Part shown: positions 3,116 to 54,579 of the stretch, piece after piece | Numbering within the stretch: position 1 is the first letter of the stretch | Layout: the number at the start of each line of letters is the position of its first letter | DNA from: Candidatus Omnitrophota bacterium | Lineage (GTDB): Bacteria; Omnitrophota; Gorgyraeia; Zapsychrales; Zapsychraceae | DNA length: 64,000 nt | Reading direction: 5' to 3' | Assembly: GCA_015233495.1 (NCBI GenBank) | Contig: JADFXQ010000001.1 | Span: 68,045 to 132,044 of the forward strand | Translations under genes and position numbers: made by a program | Notes under the pieces: generated by a model | Seen by the model: the letters and a program-made list of their open reading frames with translations, nothing else | Database searches by the model: none | Told to the model about the DNA's origin: nothing

Positions 3116-3174
3116 ATTTTTTGTGAGTCGCGCTATTGGAACGAAAAGAAAATCCCAGCCATAATCGACCTGAA

Positions 3175-5437: not shown

Positions 5438-5438
5438 T

Positions 5439-5551
5439 ACAGGACACAAGTATTCTAAATTTTAATTCTAGTTTTTAATAGAAAATCAGGCAGACACAAC
5501 AAATTTTTAAATAAATGTAAACGACATTACTTGTGTCTTGTGTCTTGTGTC
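5439..5551. repeat. GACACAAG/CTTGTGTC terminal-inverted-heptamer intergenic element, copy 1 (forward)
   Basis: Left end is acaGGACACAAGta. Core is aaaatcaggcagacacaacaaattttt...aaatgtaaacgacat. Right end is taCTTGTGTCTTGTGTCTTGTGTC. Lies between convergent genes. Confidence 0.8.
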
Positions 5552-5555
5552 TTTT

Positions 5556-22485: not shown

Positions 22486-24039
22486 TTAATAATTGTCCCG
22501 GACCAATTTTTTCTCACAGACTTTCTGCATATGCGCGACTTCCGCTTCCCCAAACCGCTCCCGCAGCCGGTTCAAATACCGGACGTCCTGACAATAATCG
22601 TCAAAAGCCGCGTCCCGGAATTTTAAAATTGCCCCGCTGGTCAAATGTTGGGTAGGCAAAGGAAGACAATCGCGGCTAAGCTGGGCATAACTGCTCCACG
22701 ACTGCGGGAGCGGCCATCCTTCGCGGATCGCGTCTAAATATAATTGTGAACCGGGATACGCCATCGCGCAATAAAAATTTGGATAGGCGCAATTCAATTC
22801 TTTCGCTAAAGCCAGCGTGGCGCGCATGGATTCCAAATCATCGTCCGGCAGACCAAAAATAAAATTCGCGACCACCTCAATCCCGGCCGCATGGGTTTTG
22901 CGGACAATATCCTTAATGTCTTCTTCATTAAACCGGCCCTTGGAAACGGCATCCCGGACTTTTTTCGTGCCTGCCTCGATTCCATAAGCGATCCAATTAA
23001 TGCCTGCCTGTTTCATTTTGGGCAGCATATATTCTTTCACCGTGTCAATCCGGCCATACACCCAAAAATTCAAATCATATCCGCGTTGAATCACTCCGTC
23101 GCAAATCGCCTCAACATGGTCCCATTTCATGGCAAACAGCTCGTCCAAAATCTTGATATTTTTGACCCGGTAATTTTTAACCAAAAAATCGATTTCCTCC
23201 AGGACTTTTTCCGTCGGGCGGTAACGGATACCCGGTCCGCCGAATATCGCGCTGATACAGCAAAACCCGCAGTGAAACGGGCATCCTAAACTGGTGTACA
23301 CAACCGCGTAAGGCGCACGTTCGTTCAAATGACCAAAACAATGCCAATTATGCGCCCGGTATCGGCTCATATCTAACAAGTCCCAGGCCGGCATGGGCAA
23401 AGAACCCAAATCTTGAATATTATCCGGGCGAGGATTACTGACGATTTTTCCCCCGCGCAAATACCACAGACCTTTAATCGAAAAATCCCGCGCCAGCCCG
23501 CCGCGGATAGAATCAAACAAATCCGGCGCCGCGCCGCTCGGCAAATCCGAGATTTGGCCGCCTTCTCCGAGAGACCCCTGCCGGGCCTTACCGTTTTGTA
23601 AAGCCGCCAGCAATTCAGCGTGCGTGGTAAACCCCTCGCCAACCATGACGAAATCCACAGCCTCTTCGCGCAAGGTTTGCTCCGGCAAGGCGGACGGATG
23701 TAATCCGGCGATCGCCCGGGGAGTTGCCGGCGAAAGCGTCTTTAAAGCGGCCAAAACTTTTCCCGCGCCCGGCATATTGCAAGTGGAGGCGTTAGGGTTT
23801 GTCCCGGAAACAATCACTGAAACGAATAATGGTTTCGCGGCAAGCGCCCGAGCCGCGGTTTCCTGCTCGTCCAGATTTTCCGCTTCCGCGTCAATCACCC
23901 GAACGGAAAATCCCTTGTCCCGCAAATAAGCGGCAGTCAAAATCAGCCACAAAGGCGGCTCAATCGCGGACACATCCTCGCTCAGTCCCTGATACAAACG
24001 TTTTTGATTATTAGCTTTAATGAGTACAATATCTGGCAT
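22486..24039 (-). CDS. B12-binding domain radical SAM protein (class B)
   Basis: N-terminal cobalamin-binding-like region, YTSLGCPFHCGFCC cluster motif, 517 aa. Confidence 0.75.
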   Translation of the reverse strand: MPDIVLIKANNQKRLYQGLSEDVSAIEPPLWLILTAAYLRDKGFSVRVIDAEAENLDEQETAARALAAKPLFVSVIVSGTNPNASTCNMPGAGKVLAALKTLSPATPRAIAGLHPSALPEQTLREEAVDFVMVGEGFTTHAELLAALQNGKARQGSLGEGGQISDLPSGAAPDLFDSIRGGLARDFSIKGLWYLRGGKIVSNPRPDNIQDLGSLPMPAWDLLDMSRYRAHNWHCFGHLNERAPYAVVYTSLGCPFHCGFCCISAIFGGPGIRYRPTEKVLEEIDFLVKNYRVKNIKILDELFAMKWDHVEAICDGVIQRGYDLNFWVYGRIDTVKEYMLPKMKQAGINWIAYGIEAGTKKVRDAVSKGRFNEEDIKDIVRKTHAAGIEVVANFIFGLPDDDLESMRATLALAKELNCAYPNFYCAMAYPGSQLYLDAIREGWPLPQSWSSYAQLSRDCLPLPTQHLTSGAILKFRDAAFDDYCQDVRYLNRLRERFGEAEVAHMQKVCEKKLVRDNY

Positions 24040-24062
24040 ATTTTATCATGTCCACACGATAC

Positions 24063-24175
24063 CAGGACACAAGTCATGTCGTTTACAATTTTTATAAATT
24101 TTGTTGTGTTTGCCTGATTTTATCTTAAAAAATAAGATTAAAATTTACAATACTTGTGTCCTGTGTCCTTGTGTC
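24063..24175. repeat. GACACAAG/CTTGTGTC element, copy 2 (reverse orientation)
   Basis: Core aaattttgttgtgtttgcctgatttt is the reverse complement of the copy-1 core. The ends are ccaGGACACAAGtc ... taCTTGTGTCCTGTGTCCTTGTGTC. Confidence 0.8.
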
Positions 24176-24178
24176 TTT

Positions 24179-25111
24179 TTAGACATTGGCATACTGATTT
24201 CGTTTCAAGATCCGGTAAGCCTTCACTAATTCTTTAATCCCGCCGGTCAGCGATACCGCCGGTTTAAAACCGGTCTTTTCGATTTTTTCATTGCTGACAA
24301 TATAATCGCGCTTGTCCGGATCTTCGCCGATTTTCGATTCGACGTAATAAAATTCCGGCACCTGTTTCTTGATTTCAGCGCACAATTCCTCTTTATTCAA
24401 ATTCGCGTCGCTCAAACCCACATTATAGGCTTGATTTTTCATGGTGTCAAAATGCGCCAACCCATGCACAAAGGCATTGGCCACGTCGCGGACATGAATG
24501 AAATTCCGTTTAAAATGCGCCTCAAACAACACCACAAACCGATCATTCACCGCCCGATAAACAAAATCATTCACCAATAAATCCAAACGCATCCGCGGGC
24601 TGACCCCAAACGCGGTCGCCAAACGCAAGGTGATCGCGTTGCCGGAATCGAGGATCGCTGTTTCCGCGTCCACCTTCAGCTTGCCGTAAAGCGAAACCGG
24701 CCTAAGTGGCGTTTCCTCCGTGCAATACTTGCCTTTTTCGCCGATCCCGTAACCGCTGTTCGTCGTAGGAAAAATAATCTTCTGCTGGGGACGGCGCAAA
24801 GTCAACATCAGCTTAATCGCGTCCAGCAAAACTGCCTGGGCAGTTTGCGGATCCTTCGCGCACAAAGGCGCCCCGGTCAAACAAGCCAACGGGAAAATCG
24901 CGTCCGCGTCGGCCAGCAATTTCTCAACGCAATTTTTGTCCCGCACATCCCCGCGAACAATTTCAAATTTCGGATCATGGCAGCAATCCAACAGCGGTGT
25001 CTGGCCATACATAAAATTGTCCAAAACCGTTACCTGATGCCCCTGTGACAACAACATCGGCGTCATCACCGACCCGATGTACCCGGCCCCGCCGGTAATC
25101 AATATTTTCAT
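24179..25111 (-). CDS. NAD-dependent epimerase/dehydratase (extended SDR)
   Basis: MKILITGGAGYIGS ... YGKLK catalytic YxxxK. Confidence 0.7.
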   Translation of the reverse strand: MKILITGGAGYIGSVMTPMLLSQGHQVTVLDNFMYGQTPLLDCCHDPKFEIVRGDVRDKNCVEKLLADADAIFPLACLTGAPLCAKDPQTAQAVLLDAIKLMLTLRRPQQKIIFPTTNSGYGIGEKGKYCTEETPLRPVSLYGKLKVDAETAILDSGNAITLRLATAFGVSPRMRLDLLVNDFVYRAVNDRFVVLFEAHFKRNFIHVRDVANAFVHGLAHFDTMKNQAYNVGLSDANLNKEELCAEIKKQVPEFYYVESKIGEDPDKRDYIVSNEKIEKTGFKPAVSLTGGIKELVKAYRILKRNQYANV

Positions 25112-25214: not shown

Positions 25215-26255
25215 TTATTCAACCATCTTTCTTGCCGCAGATACGATGTCGGCTACGCCTGGGTAAAAGGCCTCTTCTAACACATAGCTCGACGGGGTTG
25301 GGATGTCCGGGAAAGTGACGCGGACCGGCGCGGATTTTAATGACGCGAAGCCTTTTTCTGTGACGGTGGCGATCACTTCCGCGGCAAAACCGCAGGTTTT
25401 CCAACTCAAATCCGCGACTAACAGGCGGCCGGTTTTTTTCACGGAATCCAAAACTAGCTGTTCATCAAATGGCTTGAGCGATCTGGGGTCAATGATCTCC
25501 GCGCTGATACCCAGCTTTGCTAATTCTTCCGCCGCGCGCAGGGCCTCGACGGCCATATGCGACACCGCGACAATGGTGATATCCTTGCCTTCCCGACGGA
25601 TAACGCCCTGGCCGATGGGAACCGAATACATTTCCTCCGGGACATCACCGGTGTGTTTATACAGCCAGCGCTGCTCAAAATACAGCACCGGATTCGGATC
25701 CGCGATCGCGGCTAAAAGCAAACCTTTGGCGTCAAACGCGGTAGTGGGCATCAAGACTTTGAGCCCCGGCGTGTGGACAAACAAAGATTGCAGGGCTTGA
25801 GAATGTTGCGCTGCCGACCCCCAGCCGCGGCCGATACACGCCCGGATCACGATCGGAACCTTGACGCGCCCCGCAAACATATAATGCCATTTTCCGGCGT
25901 GATTGGCGATTTGGTCCATAGCGACGAGCAAAAAATCCGGACGGTTGTGCACCGAAACCGGACGCAAGCCGCACATCGCTGACCCTAAGGCCATGCCGAT
26001 CACCGCGTTTTCCGAAAGCGGGGTGTCAAACACCCGGCGGCCGCCGTATTTTTTATGCAGATCTTTCGTCGATCCGAACATCCCGCCCGGGTCATCGACG
26101 CCCTGACCCATGACATAAACATTCGGGTCAGCGGCCAAGGCCTGATCAAGCGCCTCGCGGATGGCTTCGCCATAACTCAATTTGCGCACAGCTTGACCCG
26201 CGTCATGATCAAAATGCGGCTCCTGCCGCTCTACATATAATTTTGTCCAGGGCAT
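25215..26255 (-). CDS. TPP-dependent dehydrogenase E1 component, beta subunit (transketolase-like)
   Basis: Full-length E1-beta similarity. The start was moved to MPWTKLY because the longer ORF-track N-terminus overlaps repeat copy 3. Confidence 0.8.
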   Translation of the reverse strand: MPWTKLYVERQEPHFDHDAGQAVRKLSYGEAIREALDQALAADPNVYVMGQGVDDPGGMFGSTKDLHKKYGGRRVFDTPLSENAVIGMALGSAMCGLRPVSVHNRPDFLLVAMDQIANHAGKWHYMFAGRVKVPIVIRACIGRGWGSAAQHSQALQSLFVHTPGLKVLMPTTAFDAKGLLLAAIADPNPVLYFEQRWLYKHTGDVPEEMYSVPIGQGVIRREGKDITIVAVSHMAVEALRAAEELAKLGISAEIIDPRSLKPFDEQLVLDSVKKTGRLLVADLSWKTCGFAAEVIATVTEKGFASLKSAPVRVTFPDIPTPSSYVLEEAFYPGVADIVSAARKMVE

Positions 26256-26271
26256 AGATTCCTTTATTAAA

Positions 26272-26389
26272 TACACAAGACACAAGTATTCTGCTCGAAT
26301 GTCCTGCTTATTTAAGGCAAACTCAGGCAAACACAACAAAATATTTTCAAATGCCTAAACAACTTGACTTGTGTCCTGTGTCTTGTCTC
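26272..26389. repeat. GACACAAG/CTTGTGTC element, copy 3 (forward)
   Basis: Left end ataCACAAGACACAAGta. Core ctcaggcaaacacaacaaaatattttcaaatgcctaaa. Right end CTTGTGTCCTGTGTCTTGTCTC. Confidence 0.8.
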
Positions 26390-27356
26390 ACTCAAATAAA
26401 AATCTTCCCAATTCCTCTTTTTTCGGCAAGGGGCTTTGCTGGGCAAAAAGGAATGCCGCCTCAATTTCCCCGTCCACTGCTTCGTCGATGGCGGCAATGT
26501 CCGCCTCCGGCGCCAAATTCTGCGCTAAAATTTTGTTCTTGAATATTTCGACCGGACACCGCCTAAAAGCATCATCCAAATCTTCTGACCGGCGGTAATT
26601 TTCCCGGCCCGGATCGCCGATTCCATTATGACCGCGCCAGCGTTGGCAAAGGCATTCTAAAAAAACCGGGCCTTGACCCGAACGCGCCGCGGCAATCGCT
26701 GTTCCCGCCTGTTCATAAACTGATAGCAAATCCGAACCATCCGCCTGATACGCGGGAATATCAAAGGCGCCCGCCCGCGCCGTCAACCGCTCATTCACCT
26801 GCCGGGCAGACAACCGCGAACAGACCGCGTAATAATTATTTTCACAAACAAATACCACCGGCAGTTTGCGCAAAGCCGCCAGATTCAAACTCTCGAAAAA
26901 CACTCCTTCTTCCATCGCGGCGTCGCCGAAAAAAGTCACCGCAACCCGGTTATCGCCGCGATACCACGAGGCGAACGCCGCGCCGACCGCGTGCGGAATG
27001 CTTCCCGCCACAATGGCCGAAGATCCCATCAGACCCACTTGCGGATCAACCAAATGCATGGAACCGCCGCGGCCCGCCGCGCACCCGGTTTCCTTGCAAT
27101 ACAATTCCGCGATCATTGCCGGCAGATCGCCGCCCTTGGCCAAATAATGACCATGACTGCGATGATTGCTGAAAACATAATCTTCGCGTTTTAAATGGCT
27201 GCAAACCCCGACGGAAACCGCCTCCTGTCCCAAGGACAAATGCACGGGCGTCTTCATCTCATCACGCGGATAAAGTTCTTCGATTTTCTGTTCCACTTTC
27301 CGAATACGGATAAGCGAACGATACAGCCGGATAATTTGTTCTGCGGTCAAGTTCAT
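26388..27356 (-). CDS. TPP-dependent dehydrogenase E1 component, alpha subunit
   Basis: TPP-binding GDAAMEEGVFFESLNLAA...VCENNYYA motif. Confidence 0.8.
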   Translation of the reverse strand: MNLTAEQIIRLYRSLIRIRKVEQKIEELYPRDEMKTPVHLSLGQEAVSVGVCSHLKREDYVFSNHRSHGHYLAKGGDLPAMIAELYCKETGCAAGRGGSMHLVDPQVGLMGSSAIVAGSIPHAVGAAFASWYRGDNRVAVTFFGDAAMEEGVFFESLNLAALRKLPVVFVCENNYYAVCSRLSARQVNERLTARAGAFDIPAYQADGSDLLSVYEQAGTAIAAARSGQGPVFLECLCQRWRGHNGIGDPGRENYRRSEDLDDAFRRCPVEIFKNKILAQNLAPEADIAAIDEAVDGEIEAAFLFAQQSPLPKKEELGRFLFE

Positions 27357-31123: not shown

Positions 31124-33235
31124 TTAAATCTCTTGTCCAGCCTTGCGCTTGGCAAACCCGGTGCCGCCGCCGACATTGATAGACGGAAACGCCTTAAGCC
31201 GGAAAATCAACATGATTTCGCTGCCCTCGCCCTTTTTGTTAGTCAGCGAAGTTTCCACGGTCCAGCTGTGCAAATCCCGCGTGACCGTGTAGCCCTGTTC
31301 CTTAAGTTTCGAAGCTTTCAAATCAAACCGGTCAAACACATGGAGCGTCCATTTTTTATTCACATCCCAATGCAGGTCGGTAGTCACCTGATCATCCGCG
31401 TCCCGGGCCCAGCGTTTCCCCACATCGAGTCCCCAGCCTTTGCCGTTAATGTACGCATCGAAATTCACCGCACTCCAATGTCTCTGCCGCGGATCATATC
31501 CGGAATCAAAATACAAAGTAAGCCAATCCACCGGACGAAAATCAATGTTCGAAGTAATCGTGTCAAACCCGCCTTTGCGCGGGTCTTCTTTCAAATGAAA
31601 ATCCGTGCCCAGCACCGCGCGCAGCAGTTCGACCGTCTTGTCGTTCCGTTTCGTCTGCAATTTATTTTCTAAAGAAAAATTGATGTTATGAATATTCGTG
31701 ATCGTGTCCACGCTGTCAAAGGCATCCAGCGTGGTGGCTGGCACAGTTGGCTTGTTCTGAAAGTCATAGGAAACGGTTGGCGTGATGATATGGCGCAGCC
31801 GGTTGATTTCCAGTCCATAGGCGTTCATCTGCGCTTCATAAATACGATAAAATTTGGTGCTGACACTTGCCCCGGTTTTAAACACGGCGCGCGTGATATT
31901 GGAGCGGGAAATGTCGTGGGTGCGGCTGTAGTATGTTTCTTCCTGCCCGACATACGGCTTAAATTCGAAAATATGGACCTTCATCGGATACGATAAAATG
32001 TTATCCGTATCCAAACGCATGGTCTTCAAACGACTGACGCTCGGCGCGGCCTGTTCATTGGCCAAATTGGAATAGGTCGTCGCGTTTCTCCAATAAAGCC
32101 CCGAATCCCCCAGCTCAAAATTGGCCATGTCATAACGGACTTCCGGCAGACGCTCGACCTGACTGGTAAACGTATTGACCCGTTTATCCGCCCGCAGGCT
32201 CAAAATCCCTTTCGACAATGTCCGCGTCAAAAGAAAAAACGTCTGCGGATTGCTGTCGCGGTCATACTCCCTTTGGAAAAAATCTTTCAAAAAACGGCTG
32301 TCGCTTAATTTATAAAACTGCATCACCGCGTTGGTCTGCTTATCCATCTGCCATTGATGCCGCCATTCGACCTTATACCGGGTATGTTGAATTTTATAAA
32401 CATCCGTCTTATCCGTGGTGGTTAAGGATTTGTCAGTAAGATAATAGGTGCGCAATAAACCGTTTCCCAAGGAAGGGGTTTTATAAGCGGTATCCAAACC
32501 ATAGCCCATGCCGATCAATTGCCGGTAATCGGCGTGCACAACCGCTTTCAAATGCTCGTCCCCGAAATAGCGCCACTGGCCCAGTAAAAACGCTCCCCAG
32601 CGCTTTTTATAACCGGGAATAACTTCCCACTGGGGTTTGGGATTTTGTAAATTTTGCGAAATCTTCGGAATATACATCAAAGGCACGTTGCCGACTTTCA
32701 TCAGAACATTGCGGGCGATAACCTTATCCTGCGGATAAATTTCGATCTGATCGGCAAACATCCGATATTCCGGATCATCCCAGTCGGAAGTGGTCATATA
32801 ACCTTTAGACATCACCAACTTATCCCCCTGCAGTTTGGTAATCAAATCCGTATATCCGTAAAGCGGGGGCATAAAAATTTTCGCTTGGCGGAATTCGCCT
32901 TTTTGCGTCGCAAAGTTATACTCCAGTTCATTGCCGGCAACCTCGCCTTTTTTGGTGCGCAAACGAACATGGCCTTTCGCGTGCGCATTTTTCGTTTTTT
33001 GCTCAAAAGTGACCATGTCGCAGGTCAGTGTCGAATCCTGATAAATAATTTTCACATTGCCCTTGGCGGTGATCAGACTTCCATCCACCGAATATTCCAC
33101 AGTGTCCCCATTCAGCTCTACGGAAGACGCGGGCGAAGAGACCGCGGCAAAACCTCTCCCCGTCCCGGCTAAAACAACCGACAAAAGCATCAATACCGCT
33201 TTTAATGGAAAATTCCAGGTTTCGCGCTTTGTCAT
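31124..33235 (-). CDS. lptD: LPS-assembly protein LptD (OstA family)
   Basis: Signal peptide. N-terminal OstA/LptA-like repeats (GNVKIIY...GHVRL...) and a ~550-aa C-terminal beta-barrel. Confidence 0.7.
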   Translation of the reverse strand: MTKRETWNFPLKAVLMLLSVVLAGTGRGFAAVSSPASSVELNGDTVEYSVDGSLITAKGNVKIIYQDSTLTCDMVTFEQKTKNAHAKGHVRLRTKKGEVAGNELEYNFATQKGEFRQAKIFMPPLYGYTDLITKLQGDKLVMSKGYMTTSDWDDPEYRMFADQIEIYPQDKVIARNVLMKVGNVPLMYIPKISQNLQNPKPQWEVIPGYKKRWGAFLLGQWRYFGDEHLKAVVHADYRQLIGMGYGLDTAYKTPSLGNGLLRTYYLTDKSLTTTDKTDVYKIQHTRYKVEWRHQWQMDKQTNAVMQFYKLSDSRFLKDFFQREYDRDSNPQTFFLLTRTLSKGILSLRADKRVNTFTSQVERLPEVRYDMANFELGDSGLYWRNATTYSNLANEQAAPSVSRLKTMRLDTDNILSYPMKVHIFEFKPYVGQEETYYSRTHDISRSNITRAVFKTGASVSTKFYRIYEAQMNAYGLEINRLRHIITPTVSYDFQNKPTVPATTLDAFDSVDTITNIHNINFSLENKLQTKRNDKTVELLRAVLGTDFHLKEDPRKGGFDTITSNIDFRPVDWLTLYFDSGYDPRQRHWSAVNFDAYINGKGWGLDVGKRWARDADDQVTTDLHWDVNKKWTLHVFDRFDLKASKLKEQGYTVTRDLHSWTVETSLTNKKGEGSEIMLIFRLKAFPSINVGGGTGFAKRKAGQEI

Positions 33236-34185
33236 TTGAATTTTGTCATTTGAATTTTGTCATTTGTCATTAATAAACCCGCTCCGATCACGCCCGCGTC
33301 ATCGCCTAATTTCGCCGCCGCCACTTTAACTAACTGCGCGGGAACTCCCATTGCCCGTTCGCGGATCGTGGCGGCAATCGCTGTTTTCATAAAACGCAAA
33401 CTTTTCGCGACCCCGCCGCCTATCACAATAAGACGCGGATTTAATAAATTAACCGCCCCGACTAAACCATACCCAACCACTGTGCCGACCCCATACCAAA
33501 AATCCAAAGCCCGGCTATCGCCCCGCGCTGCTAAGGCGTAAACATCTTCTAATGTGATATCTTGGCGTTTAAAAAAATCCCGCGCTCCAGCCAAGAGAGT
33601 GGCATTGCCGACATAACGCTCAAAACAAGCCCGCCCGCCGCAATTGCACGCCGGCCCGTTTTCATTGAGCGGCACATGACCCAGCTCGCCCGCGCAAAAC
33701 CCTTCGCCGCGATACAATTTGCCCTCTAAAATCAAACCCGCGCCCACCCCCGTACCCAGCGTCATACAAATCATGTTCCGGTAGCCCCGTCCGGCTCCGA
33801 ATTTCGCCTCCGCCAGAGCCATACCATTGACATCATTATCTACCCGGACCGGTAACCCTAATTTTGCTTCTGCCAATTTCTGCAAAGGCACATTTTTCCA
33901 CCCAAAAATATTCGTCAAAGTCAAAACCACGCCCCGGTCAAAATCCACCAAACCCGGCACGCCAAAACCCACGCCTTGCACCTGATCTTGACGCAGTCCC
34001 CGCGCCGCTAAAAGCCCGGCCACACTTTCGACCACCGCTTGAATCAGACATTCTTTATCCGCGGCCACCTCGGCGGTCTTGATCCGGCCTCGGGCCACAA
34101 TCTCCCCGGCATCCGAGACGATACCCAGTTTAATATTCGTGCCGCCAATATCAACGCCAATCACATAATTTTTCTTATACATCAT
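33232..34185 (-). CDS. ROK family sugar kinase (glucokinase-like)
   Basis: VIGVDIGGTNIKLGIV, and an EAGHxP ROK motif including a CxCGxxGC zinc motif. Confidence 0.75.
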   Translation of the reverse strand: MMYKKNYVIGVDIGGTNIKLGIVSDAGEIVARGRIKTAEVAADKECLIQAVVESVAGLLAARGLRQDQVQGVGFGVPGLVDFDRGVVLTLTNIFGWKNVPLQKLAEAKLGLPVRVDNDVNGMALAEAKFGAGRGYRNMICMTLGTGVGAGLILEGKLYRGEGFCAGELGHVPLNENGPACNCGGRACFERYVGNATLLAGARDFFKRQDITLEDVYALAARGDSRALDFWYGVGTVVGYGLVGAVNLLNPRLIVIGGGVAKSLRFMKTAIAATIRERAMGVPAQLVKVAAAKLGDDAGVIGAGLLMTNDKIQMTKFK

Positions 34186-38211: not shown

Positions 38212-38228
38212 AAGAGTAATGACAAAAT

Positions 38229-39071
38229 TCAAATCACAAAATATCCGATCAATTTTGCCAGCGTGGACTTCATTTCTTTGCGCGAAACAATCATATCGAT
38301 CAGGCCGTGCGCCATCAAAAATTCCGAACGCTGAAATCCTCCCGGCAGCTTCTGCCGGATCGTTTGTTCAATAACCCGCGGCCCGGCAAAACCCACCAAA
38401 GCCCGCGGCTCAGCGATAATTATATCGCCCACCCCGGCGAACGAAGCCATAATCCCGCCCATGGTCGGATCAGTCAATACGGAAATGTAAAGCAATCCGG
38501 ATTCCTGATGCTTGCCTATTGCCGCGCAAGTTTTCGCCATCTGCATCAAAGAAATCGCGCCCTCATACATCCGCGCCCCGCCGCCAGACCCCGAAACAAT
38601 AATCATTGGCAAACGCTGCCGCGTTGCCGCCTCAACCGCGCGGGTTATCCGCTCCCCAACCACTGATCCCATTGACCCCATAATGAACCGGGAATCCGTA
38701 ACCCCCAAAACCACGTCACGTCCTTCTATCTTGCCTTGCCCGGTGATCACCGCGTCCTTCAACCCGGTCAGCGCTTGATCGCCTTCAATTTTCTGCTGAT
38801 ACGTTTTCGGGCCTTTAAAAACCAACGGATCCCGGGAAGTCAACGCCGCGTCCATTTCCGTAAAAGTGTTTTCGTCCATGAGCAGACTGACCCTCTGCGG
38901 CGCGGTCAGGACGATATGATAATTGCATTTTGGACAAACATTCTCGTTAATGTCCAAATCTTTTTTATGGTTGGCCGCAGAACATTCCGGACATTTATGC
39001 CATAACCCGGCCGGAATCTCTTTTTTCTTTACGGTCACCAACGTAAATTTACTGCGTCCAAAAAGAGCCAT
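38229..39071 (-). CDS. accD: acetyl-CoA carboxylase carboxyltransferase beta subunit
   Basis: N-terminal zinc ribbon CPECSAANHKKDLDINENVCPKCNYH and a carboxyltransferase domain. Confidence 0.9.
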   Translation of the reverse strand: MALFGRSKFTLVTVKKKEIPAGLWHKCPECSAANHKKDLDINENVCPKCNYHIVLTAPQRVSLLMDENTFTEMDAALTSRDPLVFKGPKTYQQKIEGDQALTGLKDAVITGQGKIEGRDVVLGVTDSRFIMGSMGSVVGERITRAVEAATRQRLPMIIVSGSGGGARMYEGAISLMQMAKTCAAIGKHQESGLLYISVLTDPTMGGIMASFAGVGDIIIAEPRALVGFAGPRVIEQTIRQKLPGGFQRSEFLMAHGLIDMIVSRKEMKSTLAKLIGYFVI

Positions 39072-40959: not shown

Positions 40960-41409
40960 TTATTTTGTAAAATGTGTTTTTAATTTATGCTTTTGAGCGG
41001 CAGCTAACAACGCCCCATCGTAGGTCAATAACGGGATATGCCCTAATCGCGCAGACAAATCCAAGTAGGCGGCGTCATAAGTTGTAAGATGATAAGTTCG
41101 TGCGATATCAAGAACGGAAGTGTTTAACCAGCCGGGTGACGATATTGCGTCAATAAACAACGGAAGCCGGCTGGCCATGTCGAGAATTCTTTCTTGAGTA
41201 TGGCGATTTAAGCGTCCTTTATTTTCTGCCATAACCAAGATATTCATGAATTCATAAACAAAAATAGACGGGACGTGGATTTTGATTCTATCTATTTTGT
41301 CAAGCGCCCCAGAATGCTCCCCGGCAGACTCATCCGGAAGAAACCATGAAGCCACAACATTAGCGTCAACGACAACAGATGATATTAAGCTCGACCCTGT
41401 CTTTTCCAT
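40960..41409 (-). CDS. vapC: PIN-domain toxin (VapC-like)
   Basis: VVDANVVASWF...(D) acidic PIN residues, YDAAYLDLS, 149 aa. Paired with the upstream small antitoxin. Confidence 0.65.
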   Translation of the reverse strand: MEKTGSSLISSVVVDANVVASWFLPDESAGEHSGALDKIDRIKIHVPSIFVYEFMNILVMAENKGRLNRHTQERILDMASRLPLFIDAISSPGWLNTSVLDIARTYHLTTYDAAYLDLSARLGHIPLLTYDGALLAAAQKHKLKTHFTK

Positions 41410-41627
41410 TGATTAAGCTCTTCGATGGTGATCTTGTCTACGGATTGGCGGAGTTCTTTAATTTCTTTTATCAAAGATTTTGAACGGCATAAAAAACTTT
41501 CAGTTACAGGCACTATTTTGGCGACCGGCACATTCTTTTTCATGATGACGTGTTCTTCTCCTCGCATCACCTCTTTGATAATTCCCGACAAATGGCTTCT
41601 TGTTTCTAAAATTCCGCTCGTGGTCAT
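41385..41627 (-). CDS. Phd/YefM-type antitoxin (VapB-like)
   Basis: 80 aa, with the typical Phd N-terminus (TSGILETRSHLSGIIKEV...). Start MTTSG is preceded by a GGAGGG SD. Overlaps vapC by ~25 nt. Confidence 0.6.
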   Translation of the reverse strand: MTTSGILETRSHLSGIIKEVMRGEEHVIMKKNVPVAKIVPVTESFLCRSKSLIKEIKELRQSVDKITIEELNQWKRQGRA

Positions 41628-41643
41628 ATTACGTCCCTCCATT

Positions 41644-41684
41644 CTGTACATCTAAAGTGTACAGTTAAATATTGTTCATGTCAA
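41644..41684 (-). promoter_or_regulatory. vapBC promoter with overlapping palindromic operator
   Basis: On the minus strand: TTGACA-17 bp-TACACT. The perfect inverted repeat CTGTACA-N7-TGTACAG (41644..41664) overlaps the -10. Confidence 0.5.
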
Positions 41685-41759: not shown

Positions 41760-42035
41760 TCATTTACATCCCGGGCAGCAGCCTTCGGCTTTAGCTGGGC
41801 AGGTTTTTTCGGGAGATTTCGGGGACGGGGCTTCGCATTTTGGCGCGTCTTTCTTTTTGTAATCGGTTTCGTAGAAACCTTTGCCTTTAAAAATCACGCC
41901 GCCTCCGGTGCCAATGAGCCGGATAAGCTTGTTCTTGCCGCATTTCGGGCATTTTTTTAATTTTTCATCCGTCATAGACTGCCAGGCTTCTAATCCATGG
42001 CCGCAGGCCGTGCATTCATATTGATATGTTGGCAT
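41760..42035 (-). CDS. FmdB family zinc-ribbon protein
   Basis: MPTYQYECTACGH...CPKCG is the FmdB/CxxC-x17-CxxC N-terminus, followed by a Cys-rich tail. Confidence 0.7.
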   Translation of the reverse strand: MPTYQYECTACGHGLEAWQSMTDEKLKKCPKCGKNKLIRLIGTGGGVIFKGKGFYETDYKKKDAPKCEAPSPKSPEKTCPAKAEGCCPGCK

Positions 42036-42054
42036 AGGTCGATCCTTTTATTAA

Positions 42055-42181
42055 AGACACACGCCACAAGTAAGGTCATTTAGGCATTTGAAATATTTTG
42101 TCGTATGTGCCTGAGTATCAATATTTCAACAAGACTTTCAAACAGAATGTTTGTGTCTTGTGTCCTATCCTTTGTCCTGTC
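42055..42181. repeat. GACACAAG/CTTGTGTC element, copy 4 (reverse; closest to copy 3)
   Basis: aGACACACGCCACAAGta ... aggcatttgaaatattttgtcgtatgtgcctgag (reverse complement of the copy-3 core) ... TTTGTGTCTTGTGTCCTATCCTTTGTCCTGTC. Overlaps the dnaJ stop. Confidence 0.75.
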
Positions 42182-43329
42182 TATTTAAACACCTTCTTTA
42201 ACTTATCTTTAAACGATTTTTCACCAATATCTTCCCCGCTCGCTTTCGCAAAGTCTTCCAGAGCGCGTTTTTGGTCCGCGCTTAATTTCTGCGGGACGTC
42301 GATCATCATTTTCGCGTAAAGATCTCCGGTGCCGCCCTGATGCACATCCGGCATGCCTTTGCCTTTGAGCCGAAAGACCTTGCCGCTCGGCGTGCCTGCC
42401 GGGATTTTCATTTCCACCTCGCCGGCCAAAGTTTCAACCGCGACCTCGCCGCCAAACACGGCTTTGACAAACGGGATCGGCAGTTCCATATATAAATCGT
42501 TGCCCTCTCGCTTGAATATGTCGTGCTCTAGCGCATGGACATAAAGATAAAGATCGCCCGGCCCGGCCGCGCCGACCTCGCCTTCATGCCTGACCCGCAG
42601 CCGCGACGAATTATCCACACCCGGCGGGACATTCACGTCGATATTTCGGGTGATTTTGACCGCGCCCTGGCCGCCGCATTTCGGACAATATTCGGTGATC
42701 GTCCGTCCCTGGCCGTGACACGCCGGACAGGTCTGCTGCATCCGGAAAAATCCGCTCGACATCATAACCGCGCCTTGACCGCCGCAGGTCGGACACGTTT
42801 TGAGGGATTTGCCGTCTTTCGCGCCTGTGCCTTCGCAATCTTGACAAAATTCATGCCGAGGGACCTGAATTTTCCTGGCAACACCTTGATAAGCTTCCTC
42901 CAGCGTCACCTCAATCTCATATTGAATGTCCCGGCCGCGGCTCTGCCGGCGCGGACGCCCGCCCCCGGAAGACCGGCCGCCGCCGAACATCTCAAAAATC
43001 GAATCCGCGTTGCCGCCTCCGCCGCCGAATATAGAACTGAAAATATCGTTAAACTCGCCAAAATTCGCGCCGCGGAAAATATCCTCCGTCGTATATTGCT
43101 GATCAATCCCGGCGTGACCGTACTGATCATACATCTCCCGCTTCTTCGCGTCGGACAAAACGCCGTAGGCCTCGGAAATTTCCTTAAACTTCTCCTCCGC
43201 CGCTTTTTTCTCTTTCTCCTCAACTCGGTCCGGATGATAACGCAAAGCCAGCGACCGATAGGCCTTCTTGATCTGCGTAATATCCGCGTTCTTCTCGACA
43301 CCCAATATTTCGTAATAATCTTTTTTCAT
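42181..43329 (-). CDS. dnaJ: molecular chaperone DnaJ
   Basis: J-domain (YYEILGV...HPDR), G/F-rich linker, four CxxCxGxG zinc repeats. Start taken as [11 protein letters not shown]. Confidence 0.95.
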
Positions 43330-43349
43330 ATATTTTTGAAAGTCATAAA

Positions 43350-43487
43350 GACACAGGACACAAAGACATAAGATATGTTGCACACGTCATTTTAAAATTT
43401 TAATGTGTCTGTCTGATCATCCTTTAAAAAATAAAATACTAAATCACAACACTTGTGTCCTGTGTCTTTGTGTCTTGTGTCCTTGTA
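43350..43487. repeat. GACACAAG/CTTGTGTC element, copy 5 (reverse), between dnaK and dnaJ
   Basis: GACACAGGACACAAAGACATAAG ... core ... CTTGTGTCCTGTGTCTTTGTGTCTTGTGTCCTTGTa. This is the longest heptamer array. Confidence 0.8.
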
Positions 43488-43491
43488 ATCT

Positions 43492-45450
43492 TTATTTCTT
43501 CTCATCCTCCGCCCGAAAATCGGCGTCGATTACGTCATCCTTGCCGTCGCTCTTGCCGGATGAAGAATGATCATCCGCTTTTCCGGCATTCGGATGTCCA
43601 GCGCCCATATCCGGACCCGGACCAGCCTCGCCGCCCGGCGCCGCGCCAGCGCCCGCCGGCCCGCCTTGCGCCGCGGTCGCTTTATAAACTTCTTCCGCCA
43701 ATTTATGACTGGCTTTTTGCACAGCATCCATCGCGGATTTGATTTTTCCGGCGTCCTTGCTCTCGATCGCTTGCTTGAGCGCCGCGAGCTCATTTTCCAC
43801 ACTCGACTTATCACCTCCGGAAATCTTGTCGCCATAATCTTTCAGCGCCTTTTCCGTTGAATAAAGCAAGGTGTTCGCTTGATTATGCATTTCCGCTTCG
43901 TCGCGGCGTTTTTTGTCTTCATCGGCGTATTGTTCCGCCTGTTTCACCATCTTATCAATCTCTTCCTTCGACAATTTCGTCGGAGCCGTAATCCGGATCG
44001 ACTGTTCCTTGCCGGTCCCGCGGTCTTTCGCAGCCACATGAACAATCCCGTCCGTGTCAATGTTAAAGGTCACTTCCACCTGAGGAACGCCGCGCGGCGC
44101 CGGCGGAATTCCCACCAGATCAAACCGGCCCAATTCCGTATTGTCATTAGCCATTTGCCGCTCGCCCTGCAGAACCCGGATCGTCACCGCAGTCTGATTG
44201 TCATCCGCGGTTGAAAACACCTGGCTCTTTTTGCTCGGGATCGTCGTATTGCGATCAATCAATTTCGTAAACACCCCGCCCAAGGTTTCAATCCCCAAAG
44301 ACAACGGCGTTACGTCGAGCAAAAGAACTTCTTTCGCTTCGCCGCGGATGATCCCGCATTGCACAGCCGCGCCCAAGGCCACGCATTCCATAGGGTCAAT
44401 CCCGCCTTCGATCTTCTGCCCGATTTCCTTTTCCACGAACTTCTGGACAATCGGCATGCGCGTCGGACCGCCGACGAGAATCACCCGGTCCACCTTCACG
44501 TCACTCCCCAATTTCGCGGAGGCGTCTTTGATGGCCTGATGAATTGGGCCGCGGCAGCGCGCCACAATCGGCTCCACCAGACTTTCCAATTTGGCCCGTT
44601 CGATTTTCATAGTCAAATGTTTCGGACCCGTGGCATCCGCGGTCACGAACGGCAGATTGATGTCAGTCGAAACCGTGCTGGACATTTCCACCTTGGCCTT
44701 TTCCGCCGCTTCACGCAAGCGTTGAAACGCCATCTTGTCGCCTTTAAGGTTAATGCCGCTCTCTTTGCGGAATTCCTCGGTGATATAATCAATCAGGACA
44801 TTATCCATGTCCGTGCCGCCCAGCAAATTATCCCCACTCGTCGACAAAACCTCGAAAGTCGAGGCCTTGTGGCCTTCGTCCCAACCCATTTCCAGGATCG
44901 TGACATCGAGTGTGCCGCCGCCAAAATCAAAAACCATGATCTTTTGCTCTTTGCCGACTTTATCCAAACCATAGGCCAGACACGCGGCAGTTGGTTCATT
45001 GATGATGCGCAGCACTTTCAATCCTGCGATCTCCCCCGCGTCTTTCGTAGCTTGCCGCTGATTGTCGTTGAAATACGCTGGCACTGTGATGACCGCTTCA
45101 TCCACGGTATCGCCCAGATATTTCTCCGAATCCGCCTTGATTTTTTGCAAGATAAACGCGCTGATCTGTTGCGGCGTGAATTCCTTATCAAAGACCTTGA
45201 ACTTCTCGCCGGTCCCCATCTTGCGTTTGGCCGCGTATACGGTCCCTTCCGAATTAACCGCGGCCTGACGCCGCGCCGGTTCGCCGACCAAACGCTGGCC
45301 ATCTTTCGTGAACGCCACGAATGACGGAAATGCCTTGCCCGAAGCCACACCCGCGCCTTCGGCCGACGGAATAATCACCGGACGCCCGCCTTCCATCACC
45401 GCGGCCGCTGAATTCGAAGTCCCTAAATCAATCCCAATTGCTCTAGCCAT
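43492..45450 (-). CDS. dnaK: molecular chaperone DnaK (Hsp70)
   Basis: [22 protein letters not shown], and full-length Hsp70 similarity. 652 aa. Confidence 0.97.
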
Positions 45451-45480: not shown

Positions 45481-46065
45481 TTATTTGCTTTTCGCTAATT
45501 TGACTTTTGCGGTTCTGATAACCCGGTCTCCCAGACAATATCCTTTTTGCAATTCTTCCAAAACCGTCCCTTCTTCAACCGCATCATTCGGCTCTTGATA
45601 TAACACTTCCTGTGAATGCGGATCAAACTTTTTGCCCTTCGCCTCAAGCGGCTTGACTCCATGCTGGGACAACATCTTATTGATCTGCCCCATCACCAAC
45701 TCCACTCCTTTCAAAAACGCCTCATAATCCTCATGCTTAGCCTGCGCCACCGCCACCGTCCGCTCCAGATCGTCGAGAATATCCAAAAATTCAATGATCA
45801 GCCCCTCATTCGCGAATTTCCGAAAATCAATCCGTTCCCGTTCCCAACGTTTGCGCGCATTATCAAATTCCGCGACGAGACGGACATTGCGATCCTTATA
45901 CTCTGCGGCTTCAGAGAGCAACCGCTCATATTCCTCCGAAGGAATCGAAGCCATCTTGACTTCGCCGTCCGCCTTATCCGTCGTCTCAGGCGAATCAAAC
46001 GGCACCTGCTCCGAATTGTTCATATTTTCGTTTTCATCATCCATTAACAAAATCCTTGTCTTCAA
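45481..46065 (-). CDS. grpE: nucleotide exchange factor GrpE
   Basis: GrpE coiled-coil and C-terminal beta domain. The ORF-track start is a TTG. ATG at 46044 (MDDENEN) has an AAGGA SD and may be the true start. Confidence 0.85.
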   Translation of the reverse strand: MKTRILLMDDENENMNNSEQVPFDSPETTDKADGEVKMASIPSEEYERLLSEAAEYKDRNVRLVAEFDNARKRWERERIDFRKFANEGLIIEFLDILDDLERTVAVAQAKHEDYEAFLKGVELVMGQINKMLSQHGVKPLEAKGKKFDPHSQEVLYQEPNDAVEEGTVLEELQKGYCLGDRVIRTAKVKLAKSK

Positions 46066-46082
46066 ATAACACCGATACCCAA

Positions 46083-46204
46083 ACCGCGCGCTAAAAGTTG
46101 GTGAGGAAATGCTTTCGGGATCGTTCTGAGGCCGTTCTTACCTCTTTTTTCCAGAAAAAGGCCGAAGGCAGAGCCCGAAAACATTTCCTCACCAACCCGC
46201 GCGC
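46083..46204 (-). promoter_or_regulatory. long imperfect inverted repeat (>30-bp stem) in hrcA-grpE intergenic region
   Basis: CGCGCG..TTGGTGAGGAAATGCTTTCGGG ... CCCGAAAACATTTCCTCACCAA..CGCGCG. Mismatches become G-U pairs only in the minus-strand (mRNA) sense. Confidence 0.5.
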
Positions 46205-46252: not shown

Positions 46253-46990
46253 TCACCACATCTCTTCCAGCAACCGCGAAAAGTAATCCAGCGTAGAGAC
46301 AACGCGTTCATAATCCATACGCGTCGGTCCCAACACCGCGAGCCTGCCGCTCGGCCCATGATGCGTTTTATAACGCGATACAACCAACGAACACGTAGTC
46401 ATGCCTTGGCACCGAATCTCCTGACCAATATGAATATCAATCTTCCGCTGCAAATCCCGGTTAATCATATCCAGCAGCCGTTCCTTTTCATCCAACGCGA
46501 ATAAAATATGCCGGATACTTTCAATATCCTGATAATCGGGATACGCGGCAATGAAATTCGTCCCCCGGCAAAAAACCCGCCGCAAATCTCCGTCAATCGA
46601 AACCAGACTCGTATAATGCGTAGTTTCCGCCAGCACCTTTGAAGTGCGGTCCAAAATATCCTCCAACTCGCGAGTCTTGCGGTCATATTCCATCTTGATC
46701 CGCCGCTTTTCTTCTTCTAACAGATAAATTTCTTCCATCAAATAATCGACATAATACCGATACCCCCACTGGGTCGGAACCCGGCCCGCCGAAGTATGCG
46801 GATGAGTCAAATATCCTTCCTCTTCCAATTCCGCGAGAATATTCCGCACCGTGGCGGAACTCAATTCCGGCAAATATTTTTCCACAATCAATGCCGAACT
46901 TACCGGAGAAATATGATGAATATACTGCCCCACCGTAATCGCCAAAACCCGGTCTTTCCGCGCTTGAATTTCTGCTTTTTTAGTTTGCAT
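46253..46990 (-). CDS. hrcA: heat-inducible transcription repressor HrcA
   Basis: HrcA winged-helix N-terminus (ARKDRVLAITVGQYIHHISPVSS) and a GAF-like C-domain. Start MQTKK with a GGGAG SD. The longer ORF-track N-terminus overlaps CIRCE. Confidence 0.85.
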   Translation of the reverse strand: MQTKKAEIQARKDRVLAITVGQYIHHISPVSSALIVEKYLPELSSATVRNILAELEEEGYLTHPHTSAGRVPTQWGYRYYVDYLMEEIYLLEEEKRRIKMEYDRKTRELEDILDRTSKVLAETTHYTSLVSIDGDLRRVFCRGTNFIAAYPDYQDIESIRHILFALDEKERLLDMINRDLQRKIDIHIGQEIRCQGMTTCSLVVSRYKTHHGPSGRLAVLGPTRMDYERVVSTLDYFSRLLEEMW

Positions 46991-47034
46991 CCGTCTGCTC
47001 CCCATTTGGTTTTTCGTTCCCCGGAACGAAAAAC

Positions 47035-47061
47035 TTAGCACTCTATAAATCAGAATGCTAA
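47035..47061. promoter_or_regulatory. CIRCE operator (HrcA binding site) upstream of hrcA-grpE-dnaK-dnaJ
   Basis: TTAGCACTC-tataaatca-GAATGCTAA matches the CIRCE consensus TTAGCACTC-N9-GAGTGCTAA with one mismatch. The adjacent perfect palindrome TTCGTTCC-cc-GGAACGAA (47015..47032) lies between CIRCE and the start codon. Confidence 0.8.
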
Positions 47062-47083
47062 AGCGCAATTATAACAAAAAAGT

Positions 47084-48665: not shown

Positions 48666-48749
48666 CTGTGCCTCCTGTTAGTTGAGGCATTATAACATAT
48701 CAGCCCTATTCACATGGTTCCAAAAACGAATTTCTACTAGGATTTACTG

Positions 48750-48953
48750 ATTTCTTGTATTCGCCGCGTTTGCGCGAAAGCGTTTTGAAACGGATCAGCG
48801 GAATAATTACCGAGCGCGCCTCTGTTCGAGTGCCGCCGGGGGCTATCCCCCGGCGGTGCGAGTTAGGCGCGCCCGCTGAGCCGCTTCAAAACAGCGGCCC
48901 TCCCGCATTGCAGAGGCGGGAGTTGAAGCTCTCAGCGACGAATACAAGAAATC
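48750..48953 (-). ncRNA. candidate structured RNA: ~200-nt extended hairpin with asymmetric internal bubble (6S-RNA-like architecture) immediately downstream of clpB
   Basis: 15-bp perfect closing stem GATTTCTTGTATTCG/CGAATACAAGAAATC. Internal 19-bp stem cgttttgaaacggatcagcgg/ccgctgagccgcttcaaaacag. Apical GCCGCCGGGGG-ctat-CCCCCGGCGG. The 3' side of the bubble forms CTCCCGC-attgcaga-GGCGGGAG. Mismatches become G-U only in the minus sense. Confidence 0.3.
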
Positions 48954-48964
48954 CGCCGATCCGT

Positions 48965-51563: not shown

Positions 51564-51590
51564 TTAGCAGTCTATCATTGAGAGTGCTAA
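51564..51590. promoter_or_regulatory. CIRCE operator upstream of clpB
   Basis: TTAGCAGTC-tatcattga-GAGTGCTAA, 20 bp upstream of the clpB start, with a GGAGG SD between. Confidence 0.8.
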
Positions 51591-54469: not shown

Positions 54470-54496
54470 GCTTAAAGATTATATCAGCTCATTTCC

Positions 54497-54579
54497 TCAT
54501 GCACAAAACAACATCTTATTATGCACAAATTGACATGACTTCATGCACAAAACAGCAAAAAATTACGCACAAGTTGACA
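54497..54579. repeat. four direct 17-mer repeats T(C/T)A(T/C)GCACAA(A/G)(A/T)(C/T)(A/G)(A/G)CA spaced 21-23 bp upstream of the dinD-like gene
   Basis: tcATGCACAAAACAACA, ttATGCACAAATTGACA, tcATGCACAAAACAGCA, ttACGCACAAGTTGACA at 54497, 54518, 54541 and 54563. Confidence 0.6.

Follow-up and report, generated by a model that had tools for sequence, protein, structure and literature searches.

In the chaperone operon of a Candidatus Omnitrophota bacterium, dnaK, dnaJ and a downstream gene for an FmdB-type zinc-ribbon protein are separated by spacers of 159 nt (dnaK-dnaJ) and 145 nt (dnaJ-Zn-ribbon), in a compact genome where spacers are very short. Each of these two spacers is nearly filled by one copy of an AT-rich repeat, raising the question of what the repeats are and whether they serve to control expression of the heat-shock genes. 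The locus lies in a 64,000-nt stretch of contig JADFXQ010000001.1 (assembly GCA_015233495.1), referred to here as the window, whose genes are mostly on the minus strand. The original prediction for this DNA was that the repeats must be transcribed, and that they could modulate the stoichiometry of DnaK and DnaJ as processing sites, internal promoters or attenuators, thereby tying a novel repeat to a specific regulatory context. [quoted passage not shown] An effect on the DnaK:DnaJ ratio is unproven and possibly incidental.

A dispersed family of five intergenic repeats

A profile built from five aligned copies has exactly five matches in the window, with E-values of 1e-31 to 1e-33 (Table 1). 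The bracketing of dnaJ by two copies of an AT-rich heptamer repeat, as originally proposed, is borne out by these profile matches (E ~1e-31 for copies 4 and 5). All five copies are intergenic, with lengths of 117-150 bp and a GC content of 0.26-0.37, compared to 0.50 for the window. Copies 2, 4 and 5 lie in the plus orientation, and copies 1 and 3 are inverted relative to them. Two short motifs are confined to the family: the octamer GACACAAG occurs 12 times, where shuffled sequences lead one to expect 0.63 occurrences, and TTGTGTCYTGT occurs 15 times against an expectation of 0.73, with every occurrence (12 of 12 and 15 of 15, respectively) falling inside a copy.

The ends of the copies are inverted arrays of two to five tandem units of the heptamer GACACAA/G, with an occasional 8-nt variant. 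Tandem Repeats Finder reported period-7 arrays at 5530-5553, 24153-24175 and 43452-43486, and lag-7 autocorrelation is evident for copy 1 (z = 3.5) and copy 5 (z = 3.3). Alignments reveal a conserved AT-rich core of ~77 nt between the arrays, where the best-kept block, TTTTGTTGTGTnTGCCTGA, holds one further heptamer-like unit. The inverted arrays of copy 5 are located at 43340-43373 (AAGTCATAAAGACACAGGACACAAAGACATAAGA) and 43452-43486 ((CTTGTGTC)n, ~5 units), on either side of the AT-rich core, and the terminal repeats of copy 4 have decayed to AAAGACACACGCCACAAGT on the left and TTTGTGTCTTGTGTCCTATCCTTTGTCCTGTC on the right. Across the family, the terminal inverted repeats (TIRs) measure 15-30 nt; the inverted-repeat arms of 24-30 nt are 73-92% complementary, and a 15-pair terminal stem is common to the five copies. 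A candidate rule, that the longer heptamer array faces the stop codon of the upstream gene, was dropped after degenerate units had been counted. Only short open reading frames (ORFs) touch the copies, and these are not common to the copies and run into the antisense of neighbouring genes.

The positions and relatedness of the copies argue against the proposed tie to heat-shock regulation. Pairwise identity ranges from 52% to 82%; copies 1 and 2 are the most similar (82%), copies 3 and 4 share 73%, and copies 4 and 5 are the least alike (52%). Because the two copies at dnaJ form the least similar pair, they are best explained as independent old insertions rather than as a local duplication. Pfam assignments indicate that the genes flanking the family are functionally unrelated: they are heat-shock genes, a 2-oxoacid dehydrogenase E1 alpha/E1 beta pair, genes for an epimerase and a radical-SAM protein, and DUF4440 and MipA genes. 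Since three of the five copies sit in places unrelated to heat shock, the family has no special tie to that response. The E1 alpha-E1 beta gene pair, which copy 3 separates, is normally as tightly linked as dnaK-dnaJ. The TGA stop codon of E1 alpha is overrun by the outer heptamer of copy 3.

Two details of the arrangement at dnaJ require adjustment. Copies 4 and 5 do share one orientation, but its description as that of the genes is undefined, since the polarity of the element is not known and copy 3 is reversed within a minus-strand operon. Copy 4 was also described as overlapping the dnaJ stop codon; it abuts the stop codon but does not supply it, as the profile match ends at 42176 and only a degenerate heptamer, TGTCTAT, crosses the TAG at 42181-42183. 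The C-terminus of DnaJ, ending in KKVFK directly before the stop, is identical in relatives that lack the element. At the other end of the gene, a longer version of dnaJ called by the ORF finder, with a GTG start at 43383, extends into copy 5 and was rejected as the real start.

A probable MITE-like foldback family

Prokaryotic MITEs are shorter than 500 bp, AT-rich and intergenic, with TIRs of 4-30 bp and transcripts that form stable stem-loops (PMC10969869). Judged by the features listed in the same source, the elements of the window are shorter than 500 bp, non-coding, AT-rich and intergenic, their TIRs are within the 4-30 bp range, and they occur as multiple dispersed copies. Stable stem-loop transcripts are predicted for copies 2, 5 and 3, but are weak for copies 1 and 4. 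Presence or absence at orthologous sites is also seen, the element being absent from ten related loci.

On this basis, the family would have spread in the past into short AT-rich spacers beside stop codons, probably using a transposase supplied in trans and encoded outside the window. Slippage may later have altered the number of heptamers at the ends of the elements; heptamer arrays have been attributed to polymerase slippage, and the variable unit number is read in the same way here, as the result of slippage in the terminal arrays of a MITE-like element. The copies would now be old, given identities of 52-82%, and some, such as copy 4, appear to be decaying.

Predicted folding of the copies

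The terminal arrays can pair into a stem on either strand. For copy 5, the predicted fold has a stem of ~30 bp and an energy of -44 to -45 kcal/mol, with z = -5.0 on the sense (minus) strand and z = -6.1 on the other strand. The corresponding minus-strand values are -5.6 for copy 2, -3.1 for copy 3, -1.8 for copy 1 and -1.7 for copy 4. The fold of copy 4 is weak on both strands (z = -1.7 and -1.5), indicating that its hairpin is largely lost. Among the 15 terminal pairs of the five copies there is not a single compensatory change, and the covariation term is unfavourable (+0.8). Because compensatory changes are lacking, the pairing of the stem is attributed to inherited inverted repeats rather than to a selected RNA fold, and conserved RNA structure was dropped as a candidate explanation, there being no covariation across the five copies.

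The same results bear on the suggestion that the elements are genes for a family of small regulatory RNAs. Some MITEs do yield small RNAs, as in the case of the Coxiella QMITE (PMC10969869), and the conserved central block of the elements would be consistent with such a role. Nevertheless, Rfam covariance models run over the whole window gave nothing at or above the gathering threshold, a tRNA/tmRNA scan found none, and the copies have no conserved promoter or terminator, show no covariation, and lie in both orientations inside operons. A family of small RNA genes is therefore very improbable.

The proposal of a regulatory role fares differently for the two copies at dnaJ: a long stem is predicted on the sense strand of copy 5, but the hairpin of copy 4 is weak (z = -1.7) and compensatory changes are absent. 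In the predicted fold, the copy 5 stem begins 7 nt past the dnaK stop codon and ends ~10-20 nt ahead of the dnaJ AUG. An mRNA stem of ~30 bp at this position would be expected to abolish translational coupling of dnaK and dnaJ. By analogy with Correia and ERIC elements, it could also keep 3' exonucleases off the dnaK part of the mRNA, or be a target for RNase III. Either outcome would tip the balance towards DnaK and away from DnaJ, as a side effect of the insertion rather than as designed heat-shock control. It is plausible that copy 5 shifts the DnaK:DnaJ ratio in this incidental way, and the sequence gives no sign that the effect is selected.

Probable transcription through the elements

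A scan for terminators, which misses long-loop hairpins, detected no terminator-like site in either of the spacers that flank dnaJ or within copies 2-5, and none of the stems of these four copies has more than three U after it on the sense strand. Consensus scans found no promoter-like site common to the copies, with totals near the shuffle expectation, so the suggestion that the elements act as internal promoters was not upheld. Copy 4 has two weak promoter-like matches (9/12) directed at the Zn-ribbon gene. A promoter-like TTGTAA-17-TAAGAT in copy 2 was dropped because it is not kept in the other copies. Separately, a perfect sigma-70 consensus (TTGACA-17-TATAAT, 12/12) is located on the minus strand at 24422-24450, inside the epimerase gene. 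Copy 2 and the radical-SAM gene follow ~250 nt and ~380 nt downstream, respectively, so that an active promoter here would place copy 2 in the 5' leader of the radical-SAM gene.

The heat-shock operator CIRCE was searched for as the inverted repeat TTAGCACTC-N9-GAGTGCTAA. There is no match near dnaK or dnaJ; the sole matches in the window are upstream of hrcA and clpB (Table 1), outside all copies of the repeat. The operator at hrcA marks the heat-shock promoter region of the hrcA-grpE-dnaK-dnaJ gene string, and the two sites together define an HrcA regulon in this organism. Since CIRCE is found only upstream of hrcA and clpB, and the copies contain no terminator or common promoter, the operon is probably read through the elements from the hrcA promoter, with dnaJ being read through copy 5. 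More generally, the elements lie inside operons without evident terminators or promoters, and would therefore be transcribed within polycistronic mRNA. That part of the original prediction is a reasonable inference from the conserved gene string, the location of the operators and the absence of a terminator in the spacers. The hrcA-grpE spacer itself is filled by a unique, relatively GC-rich hairpin at 46097-46196 (40-nt arms, 80% complementary, with a 20-nt loop) that is not a CIRCE element and has no second copy in the window.

An alternative to read-through is that the elements punctuate transcription, acting as terminators (bidirectional at convergent genes) with outward promoters, such that dnaK, dnaJ and the Zn-ribbon gene would be separate units. 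Copy 1 fits this description, being located between convergent genes with TTTTTT directly after its hairpin on the plus strand, and the weak matches in copy 4 point towards the Zn-ribbon gene; Correia elements are known to carry promoters (PMC10969869). On the other hand, the short U tracts after copies 2-5 and the lack of any terminator-like or common promoter-like site above shuffled counts are not what punctuation predicts. Copy 3, moreover, would split E1 alpha from E1 beta and is inverted relative to copies 2, 4 and 5, and dnaJ would lose the CIRCE/HrcA control that is located only upstream of hrcA. Punctuation is thus highly unlikely.

Comparison with related Omnitrophota loci

MBF0531562.1, the DnaJ encoded on a 187-kb contig of a 'Candidatus Omnitrophica' metagenome-assembled genome, matches the DnaJ product of the window at 100% identity. 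Among 5.8 billion proteins, the second-best DnaJ is only 75% identical, and hence there is no close sister genome for comparison. The dnaJ neighbourhoods of ten related Omnitrophota loci (nine distinct), with DnaJ 64-75% identical, were used instead. Gene order and strand are kept in all ten as hrcA-grpE-dnaK-dnaJ-Zn_ribbon_8-(VanZ)-DUF1015-accD, and the Zn_ribbon_8 gene is the next after dnaJ in every relative examined. The VanZ-like and Zn-ribbon genes are adjacent or nearly so in the relatives, unlike in the window, where genes for a PIN-domain toxin and a Phd/YefM-type antitoxin (40960-41651) lie between them.

The repeat family and its heptamer arrays are absent from both dnaJ-flanking spacers of the relatives, and from all 10 related loci as a whole. 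In the nearest relative (DnaJ 75%), the two spacers are 54 nt and 98 nt long and lack the element, and the sequences are too diverged to align exact empty sites. The original prediction held that uniform read-through coverage, combined with element-free sites in sister genomes, would speak against it; the second of these was found, in that the same sites lack the element in every relative sampled. Contig pairs that encode identical DnaJ showed no spacer differences, and so give no information on array-length polymorphism.

Spacers in this region contain other insertions. L063 has five genes between dnaK and dnaJ (1273-4000), one of them zeta-toxin/AAA_33-like, and a GC-rich palindrome (GTCATTCCCGCGGAAGCGG...CCGCTTTCGCGGGGATGAC) in its dnaJ-Zn-ribbon spacer (5159-5299). 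L014 has an 82-nt palindromic repeat of its own, with 21-nt arms that are 86% complementary, in two copies: 7835-7916 and 11889-11970, the sites being the grpE-dnaK spacer and a position after the VanZ-like gene. In L009, a 50-nt unit with a GGGGAT...ATCCCC hairpin is repeated five times in tandem (11164-11413) and fills the 338-nt dnaJ-Zn-ribbon spacer. Given these unrelated palindromes, tandem repeats and a 2.7-kb gene insertion, the spacers of the dnaK/dnaJ region appear to tolerate the insertion of small repeats.

About half of the relatives have some unrelated hairpin in the dnaK-dnaJ spacer (Table 1). These hairpins bear on a different model, in which a selected intercistronic stem-loop after dnaK sets the DnaK:DnaJ ratio as a 3' stabiliser, partial terminator or RNase III site, and the heptamer number serves as an adjustable stem length. 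Consistent with this model, the arrays are longest and the fold is most stable in copy 5 (sense-strand z = -5.0), L010, L012 and L014 have unrelated hairpins between dnaK and dnaJ, and L062 has a stem followed by TTTTAT. In addition, 7-bp-repeat hairpins between hupS and hupL have been proposed to affect stability or coupling (PMC2670836). However, the same element family is also found in four unrelated spacers, the stem is lost in copy 4, and there is zero covariation support. Among the relatives, L009, L059 and L008 lack a hairpin or a spacer altogether, and dnaK and dnaJ are 2.7 kb apart in L063. A stem-loop at the dnaK-dnaJ position may play some role; we consider a selected ratio-setting device unlikely.

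Heptamer periodicity beyond the window

Lag-7 periodicity of the dnaK-dnaJ spacer is seen in L010 (z = 5.5), L012 (z = 4.9) and L008 (z = 2.3), as well as in copy 5 (z = 3.3). A 7-nt periodicity that starts within 10 nt of the dnaK stop codon is thereby present in 4 of 10 genomes (the window and nine relatives), and is missing from the other conserved spacers of these loci. This pattern favours the selected stem-loop, although the comparison is post hoc and the sample is ten genomes. None of the three relatives uses the heptamer of the window: the unit of L010 is GATCAGT, and those of L012 and L008 are AAAAGGT-like. The spacer hairpins of L010 and L012 are made up of these arrays in inverted arrangement. 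A crude scan of ~176 kb of Omnitrophota sequence found three strict lag-7 arrays, all intergenic and two of them in the dnaK-dnaJ spacer, which is too few for statistics.

The inverted-heptamer hairpin architecture is also found in cyanobacterial short tandemly repeated repetitive (STRR) hairpins and in L003, a GC-rich soil metagenome contig that was a chance pattern match. The latter has three AT-rich intergenic hairpins with inverted heptamer arrays as arms (Table 1). Two of them are built of AAGACAC/GTCTTGT, the unit of the window element, and one of AATTAAG/CTTAATT. It is conceivable, if rather improbable, that the elements are the local form of a wider, unrecognised class of heptamer-array hairpins kept at intercistronic positions, particularly after dnaK in Omnitrophota, with a heptamer specific to each lineage. 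Members of such a class would serve as attenuators or stabilisers of adjustable length, or be recognised by a host factor that responds to the 7-nt period, and one of them would here have gained a core and spread.

A second heptamer array in the window, (TTTGTCA TTTGAAT)x3 at 33228-33271, lies over the junction of the predicted LptD start and ROK stop; on the minus strand it repeats ATGACAAA, which includes ATG. A 25-nt inverted copy of this array (96% complementary) is located 5 kb away at 38218-38242, at the junction of the accD stop and an ABC-ATPase start.

Searches for relatives, transposase and target site

Searches with the elements themselves found the family in the window and nowhere else among the collections covered. 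A pattern of core plus TIR (GTGTNTGCCTGAN{35,55}TTGTGTCYTGT) had one chance match in 185,579 species genomes and six matches in JGI metagenomes, none of which is the element. A TIR-only pattern had no match in viral contigs, and BLAST searches of plasmids and phages with copies 2 and 5 gave no match. Arrays of (GACACAR)3 in viral contigs (41 matches) were rejected as relatives, because they are presumed iterons or plain tandem arrays and never inverted pairs around a core. In L018, L020, L021, L025 and ~20 other circular viral contigs of 2.2-2.4 kb, (GGACACA)x3 directly follows a stem-loop with the loop motif TAATATTAT. These contigs are CRESS-like by size and motif, and the position of the arrays suggests Rep-binding iterons at the origin of replication; their heptamer is that of the window element, yet they are unrelated to it.

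Several observations weigh against a MITE-like origin. Pfam scans of ~60 ORFs in the window found no transposase, integrase or RAYT / Y1_Tnp domain, and the family has no known autonomous partner. The sample consists of five copies, all within the 64-kb window. A TA dinucleotide is found 0-5 nt from all ten copy ends, but the ends are blurred by degenerate outer heptamers and TA is common in AT-rich flanks; a target-site duplication is therefore not demonstrable from this weak indication. The direct repeats that flank MITEs are known to fade in old copies (PMC10969869). Most of the conservation is held by the heptamers and one central block, which could reflect a host function, and the survival of old, non-coding DNA of 120-150 bp where spacers are otherwise very short hints at a benefit. 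Finally, the 7-nt periodicity after dnaK in four of ten genomes is not predicted by random insertion.

The pattern of conservation has also been considered as the mark of iteron-like protein-binding arrays acting at the DNA level, where two inverted arrays and the central TTGTGTC/T copy would organise a protein-DNA complex; the bound protein might be a regulator, a domesticated transposase or one associated with the nucleoid. Conservation in the alignment is highest in the heptamer and in the central TTGTTGTGTnTGCC block, which is itself a repeat of the heptamer, oriented like the right-hand array. An analogous arrangement is suggested by the viral (GGACACA)3 arrays, to which a role as Rep iterons beside the origin stem-loop is assigned by position in circular contigs of ~2.3 kb. 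However, a 7-bp spacing would set successive sites on different faces of the helix, the arrays of copy 4 are degenerate in both length and sequence, the flanking genes have no common function, and neither a candidate binding protein nor a regulated gene set is evident. Inspection of the copies by eye, which is not a formal test, saw no integration host factor (IHF) consensus and no attC-like core site. Binding arrays of this kind are improbable, and a MITE-like foldback family remains the preferred explanation.

Other features of the window

Between clpB and a MORN-repeat gene is a spacer of 299 nt that includes, at 48740-48962, a 28-nt inverted repeat (82% complementary) around two GC-rich hairpins that have no Rfam match. 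At 54490-54577, four 22-nt tandem units with a conserved ATGCACAAA core are located upstream of a Bro-N domain gene. The surrounding region (51.6-57.5 kb) also contains a MazF toxin gene, a HATPase_c gene and a 769-aa ORF without a Pfam match, and could represent a small mobile or defence islet whose repeats are operator- or iteron-like.

Table 1. Coordinates of the repeat copies, the operon and the compared spacers. Positions are those of the window unless a locus is named.
Feature	Position	Strand or orientation	Remarks
Repeat copy 1	5439-5555; profile match 5436-5553	opposite (-)	Between convergent stops of DUF4440 (5021-5437, +) and MipA (5556-6326, -)
Repeat copy 2	24051-24178 (span and profile match)	+	Between NAD-dependent epimerase gene (24179-25111, -) and B12-binding radical-SAM gene (22486-24039, -)
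Repeat copy 3	26269-26390 (span and profile match)	opposite (-)	Between 2-oxoacid dehydrogenase E1 alpha (26388-27356, -) and E1 beta (25215-26255, -)
Repeat copy 4	42054-42180; profile match 42052-42176	+	E = 3e-31; fills dnaJ-Zn-ribbon spacer, abuts dnaJ stop
Repeat copy 5	43339-43486; profile match 43348-43479	+	E = 4e-31; fills dnaK-dnaJ spacer
Zn_ribbon_8 (FmdB-type) gene	41760-42035	minus	Pfam PF09723, E = 5e-17; synteny
dnaJ	42181-43332	minus	Start chosen as in homologues
dnaK (HSP70)	43492-45450	minus	652-aa ORF; synteny with loci annotated HSP70
grpE	45481-46065	minus	ORF list, domain scans
hrcA	46253-47068 (ORF)	minus	HrcA domain; true start probably later
CIRCE upstream of hrcA, TTAGCACTCTATAAATCAGAATGCTAA	47035-47061	+	1 mismatch to consensus; 0 expected by chance
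CIRCE upstream of clpB	51564-51590		1 mismatch to consensus
L009 dnaK-dnaJ			Genes overlap; no spacer content
L059 dnaK-dnaJ spacer			38 nt; no hairpin
L008 dnaK-dnaJ spacer	L008:268-321		54 nt; heptamer-periodic, no hairpin (z = +1.5)
L057 dnaK-dnaJ spacer			56 nt; no repeat noted
L014 dnaK-dnaJ spacer			87 nt; hairpin, z = -2.3
L010 dnaK-dnaJ spacer	L010:4799-4900		102 nt; 7-nt-periodic; strong hairpin, z = -6.2
L012 dnaK-dnaJ spacer	L012:9889-10000		112 nt; 7-nt-periodic; hairpin, z = -2.0
L062 dnaK-dnaJ spacer			250 nt; stem, then TTTTAT
L063 dnaK-dnaJ spacer			2.7 kb; five inserted genes
L003 heptamer hairpins	L003:205-305, 1262-1405, 2175-2235		After stop codons, between convergent genes; lag-7 z = 6-8

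Comparison with known repeat families

Small palindromic repeats are apparently undescribed for Omnitrophota, and a full-text literature search found no paper joining the phylum with MITEs. For annotation, the family accounts for unusually long spacers and for false ORF extensions, the GTG-extended dnaJ among them, and it could serve as a strain marker. Of the features described here, the recurrence of 7-nt-periodic hairpins in one spacer across lineages is the more interesting lead, and it bears on the role of STRR-type repeats in cyanobacteria.

In heterocystous cyanobacteria, STRR hairpins built of heptamers are located between co-transcribed genes such as hupS and hupL, where a role in transcript stability or translational coupling has been proposed, and their function is unknown (PMC2670836). 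Beggiatoaceae are rich in TAACTGA arrays, and in many prokaryotes no long simple repeat is commoner than the heptamer, an abundance ascribed to polymerase slippage (PMC4679880). The window elements share with these repeats the tandem 7-nt units in intergenic DNA. The STRR and TAACTGA repeats differ in that they are mostly plain direct arrays without a common core, whereas the arrays in the window have two to five units and form an inverted pair around a ~77-nt core that is dispersed as a whole. The unit GACACAA/G is not known to be among the STRR1-3 units. It also differs from TAACTGA (PMC4679880).

REP, BIME and REPIN sequences resemble the window elements as extragenic palindromes at the 3' ends of genes and between cistrons. 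REP-type palindromes, such as that of E. coli malE-malF, can stabilise the upstream mRNA. They are GC-rich, 20-40 nt long and associated with RAYT proteins, in contrast to the AT-rich elements of 117-150 bp described here, in a window that encodes no RAYT. Eukaryotic foldback (FB) transposons have TIRs made of short tandem repeats whose number varies between copies. These transposons differ in being eukaryotic and far larger, with ends on the scale of kilobases, and no evolutionary relationship is implied.

The closest parallels are the Correia (Neisseria), ERIC (enterobacteria) and RUP (pneumococcus) MITEs, which are likewise ~100-150 bp long, AT-rich and non-coding, have TIRs, and are dispersed in both orientations. 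They too are often found inside operons, where they are co-transcribed and form long hairpins (PMC10969869). RNase III cleaves Correia transcripts where the TIRs pair, and ERIC copies alter the stability of neighbouring mRNA (PMC10969869). Unlike in those families, the TIRs in the window are heptamer arrays of variable unit number rather than unique sequence. The family resembles none of the sequences searched, and it has no common promoter and no known partner insertion sequence. If the copy 5 hairpin does alter the DnaK:DnaJ ratio, it would be another mobile repeat drawn into operon-internal expression control, comparable to Correia, ERIC and REP. The element is best read as a new family within the known MITE-like or foldback intergenic repeats, with STRR-like ends.

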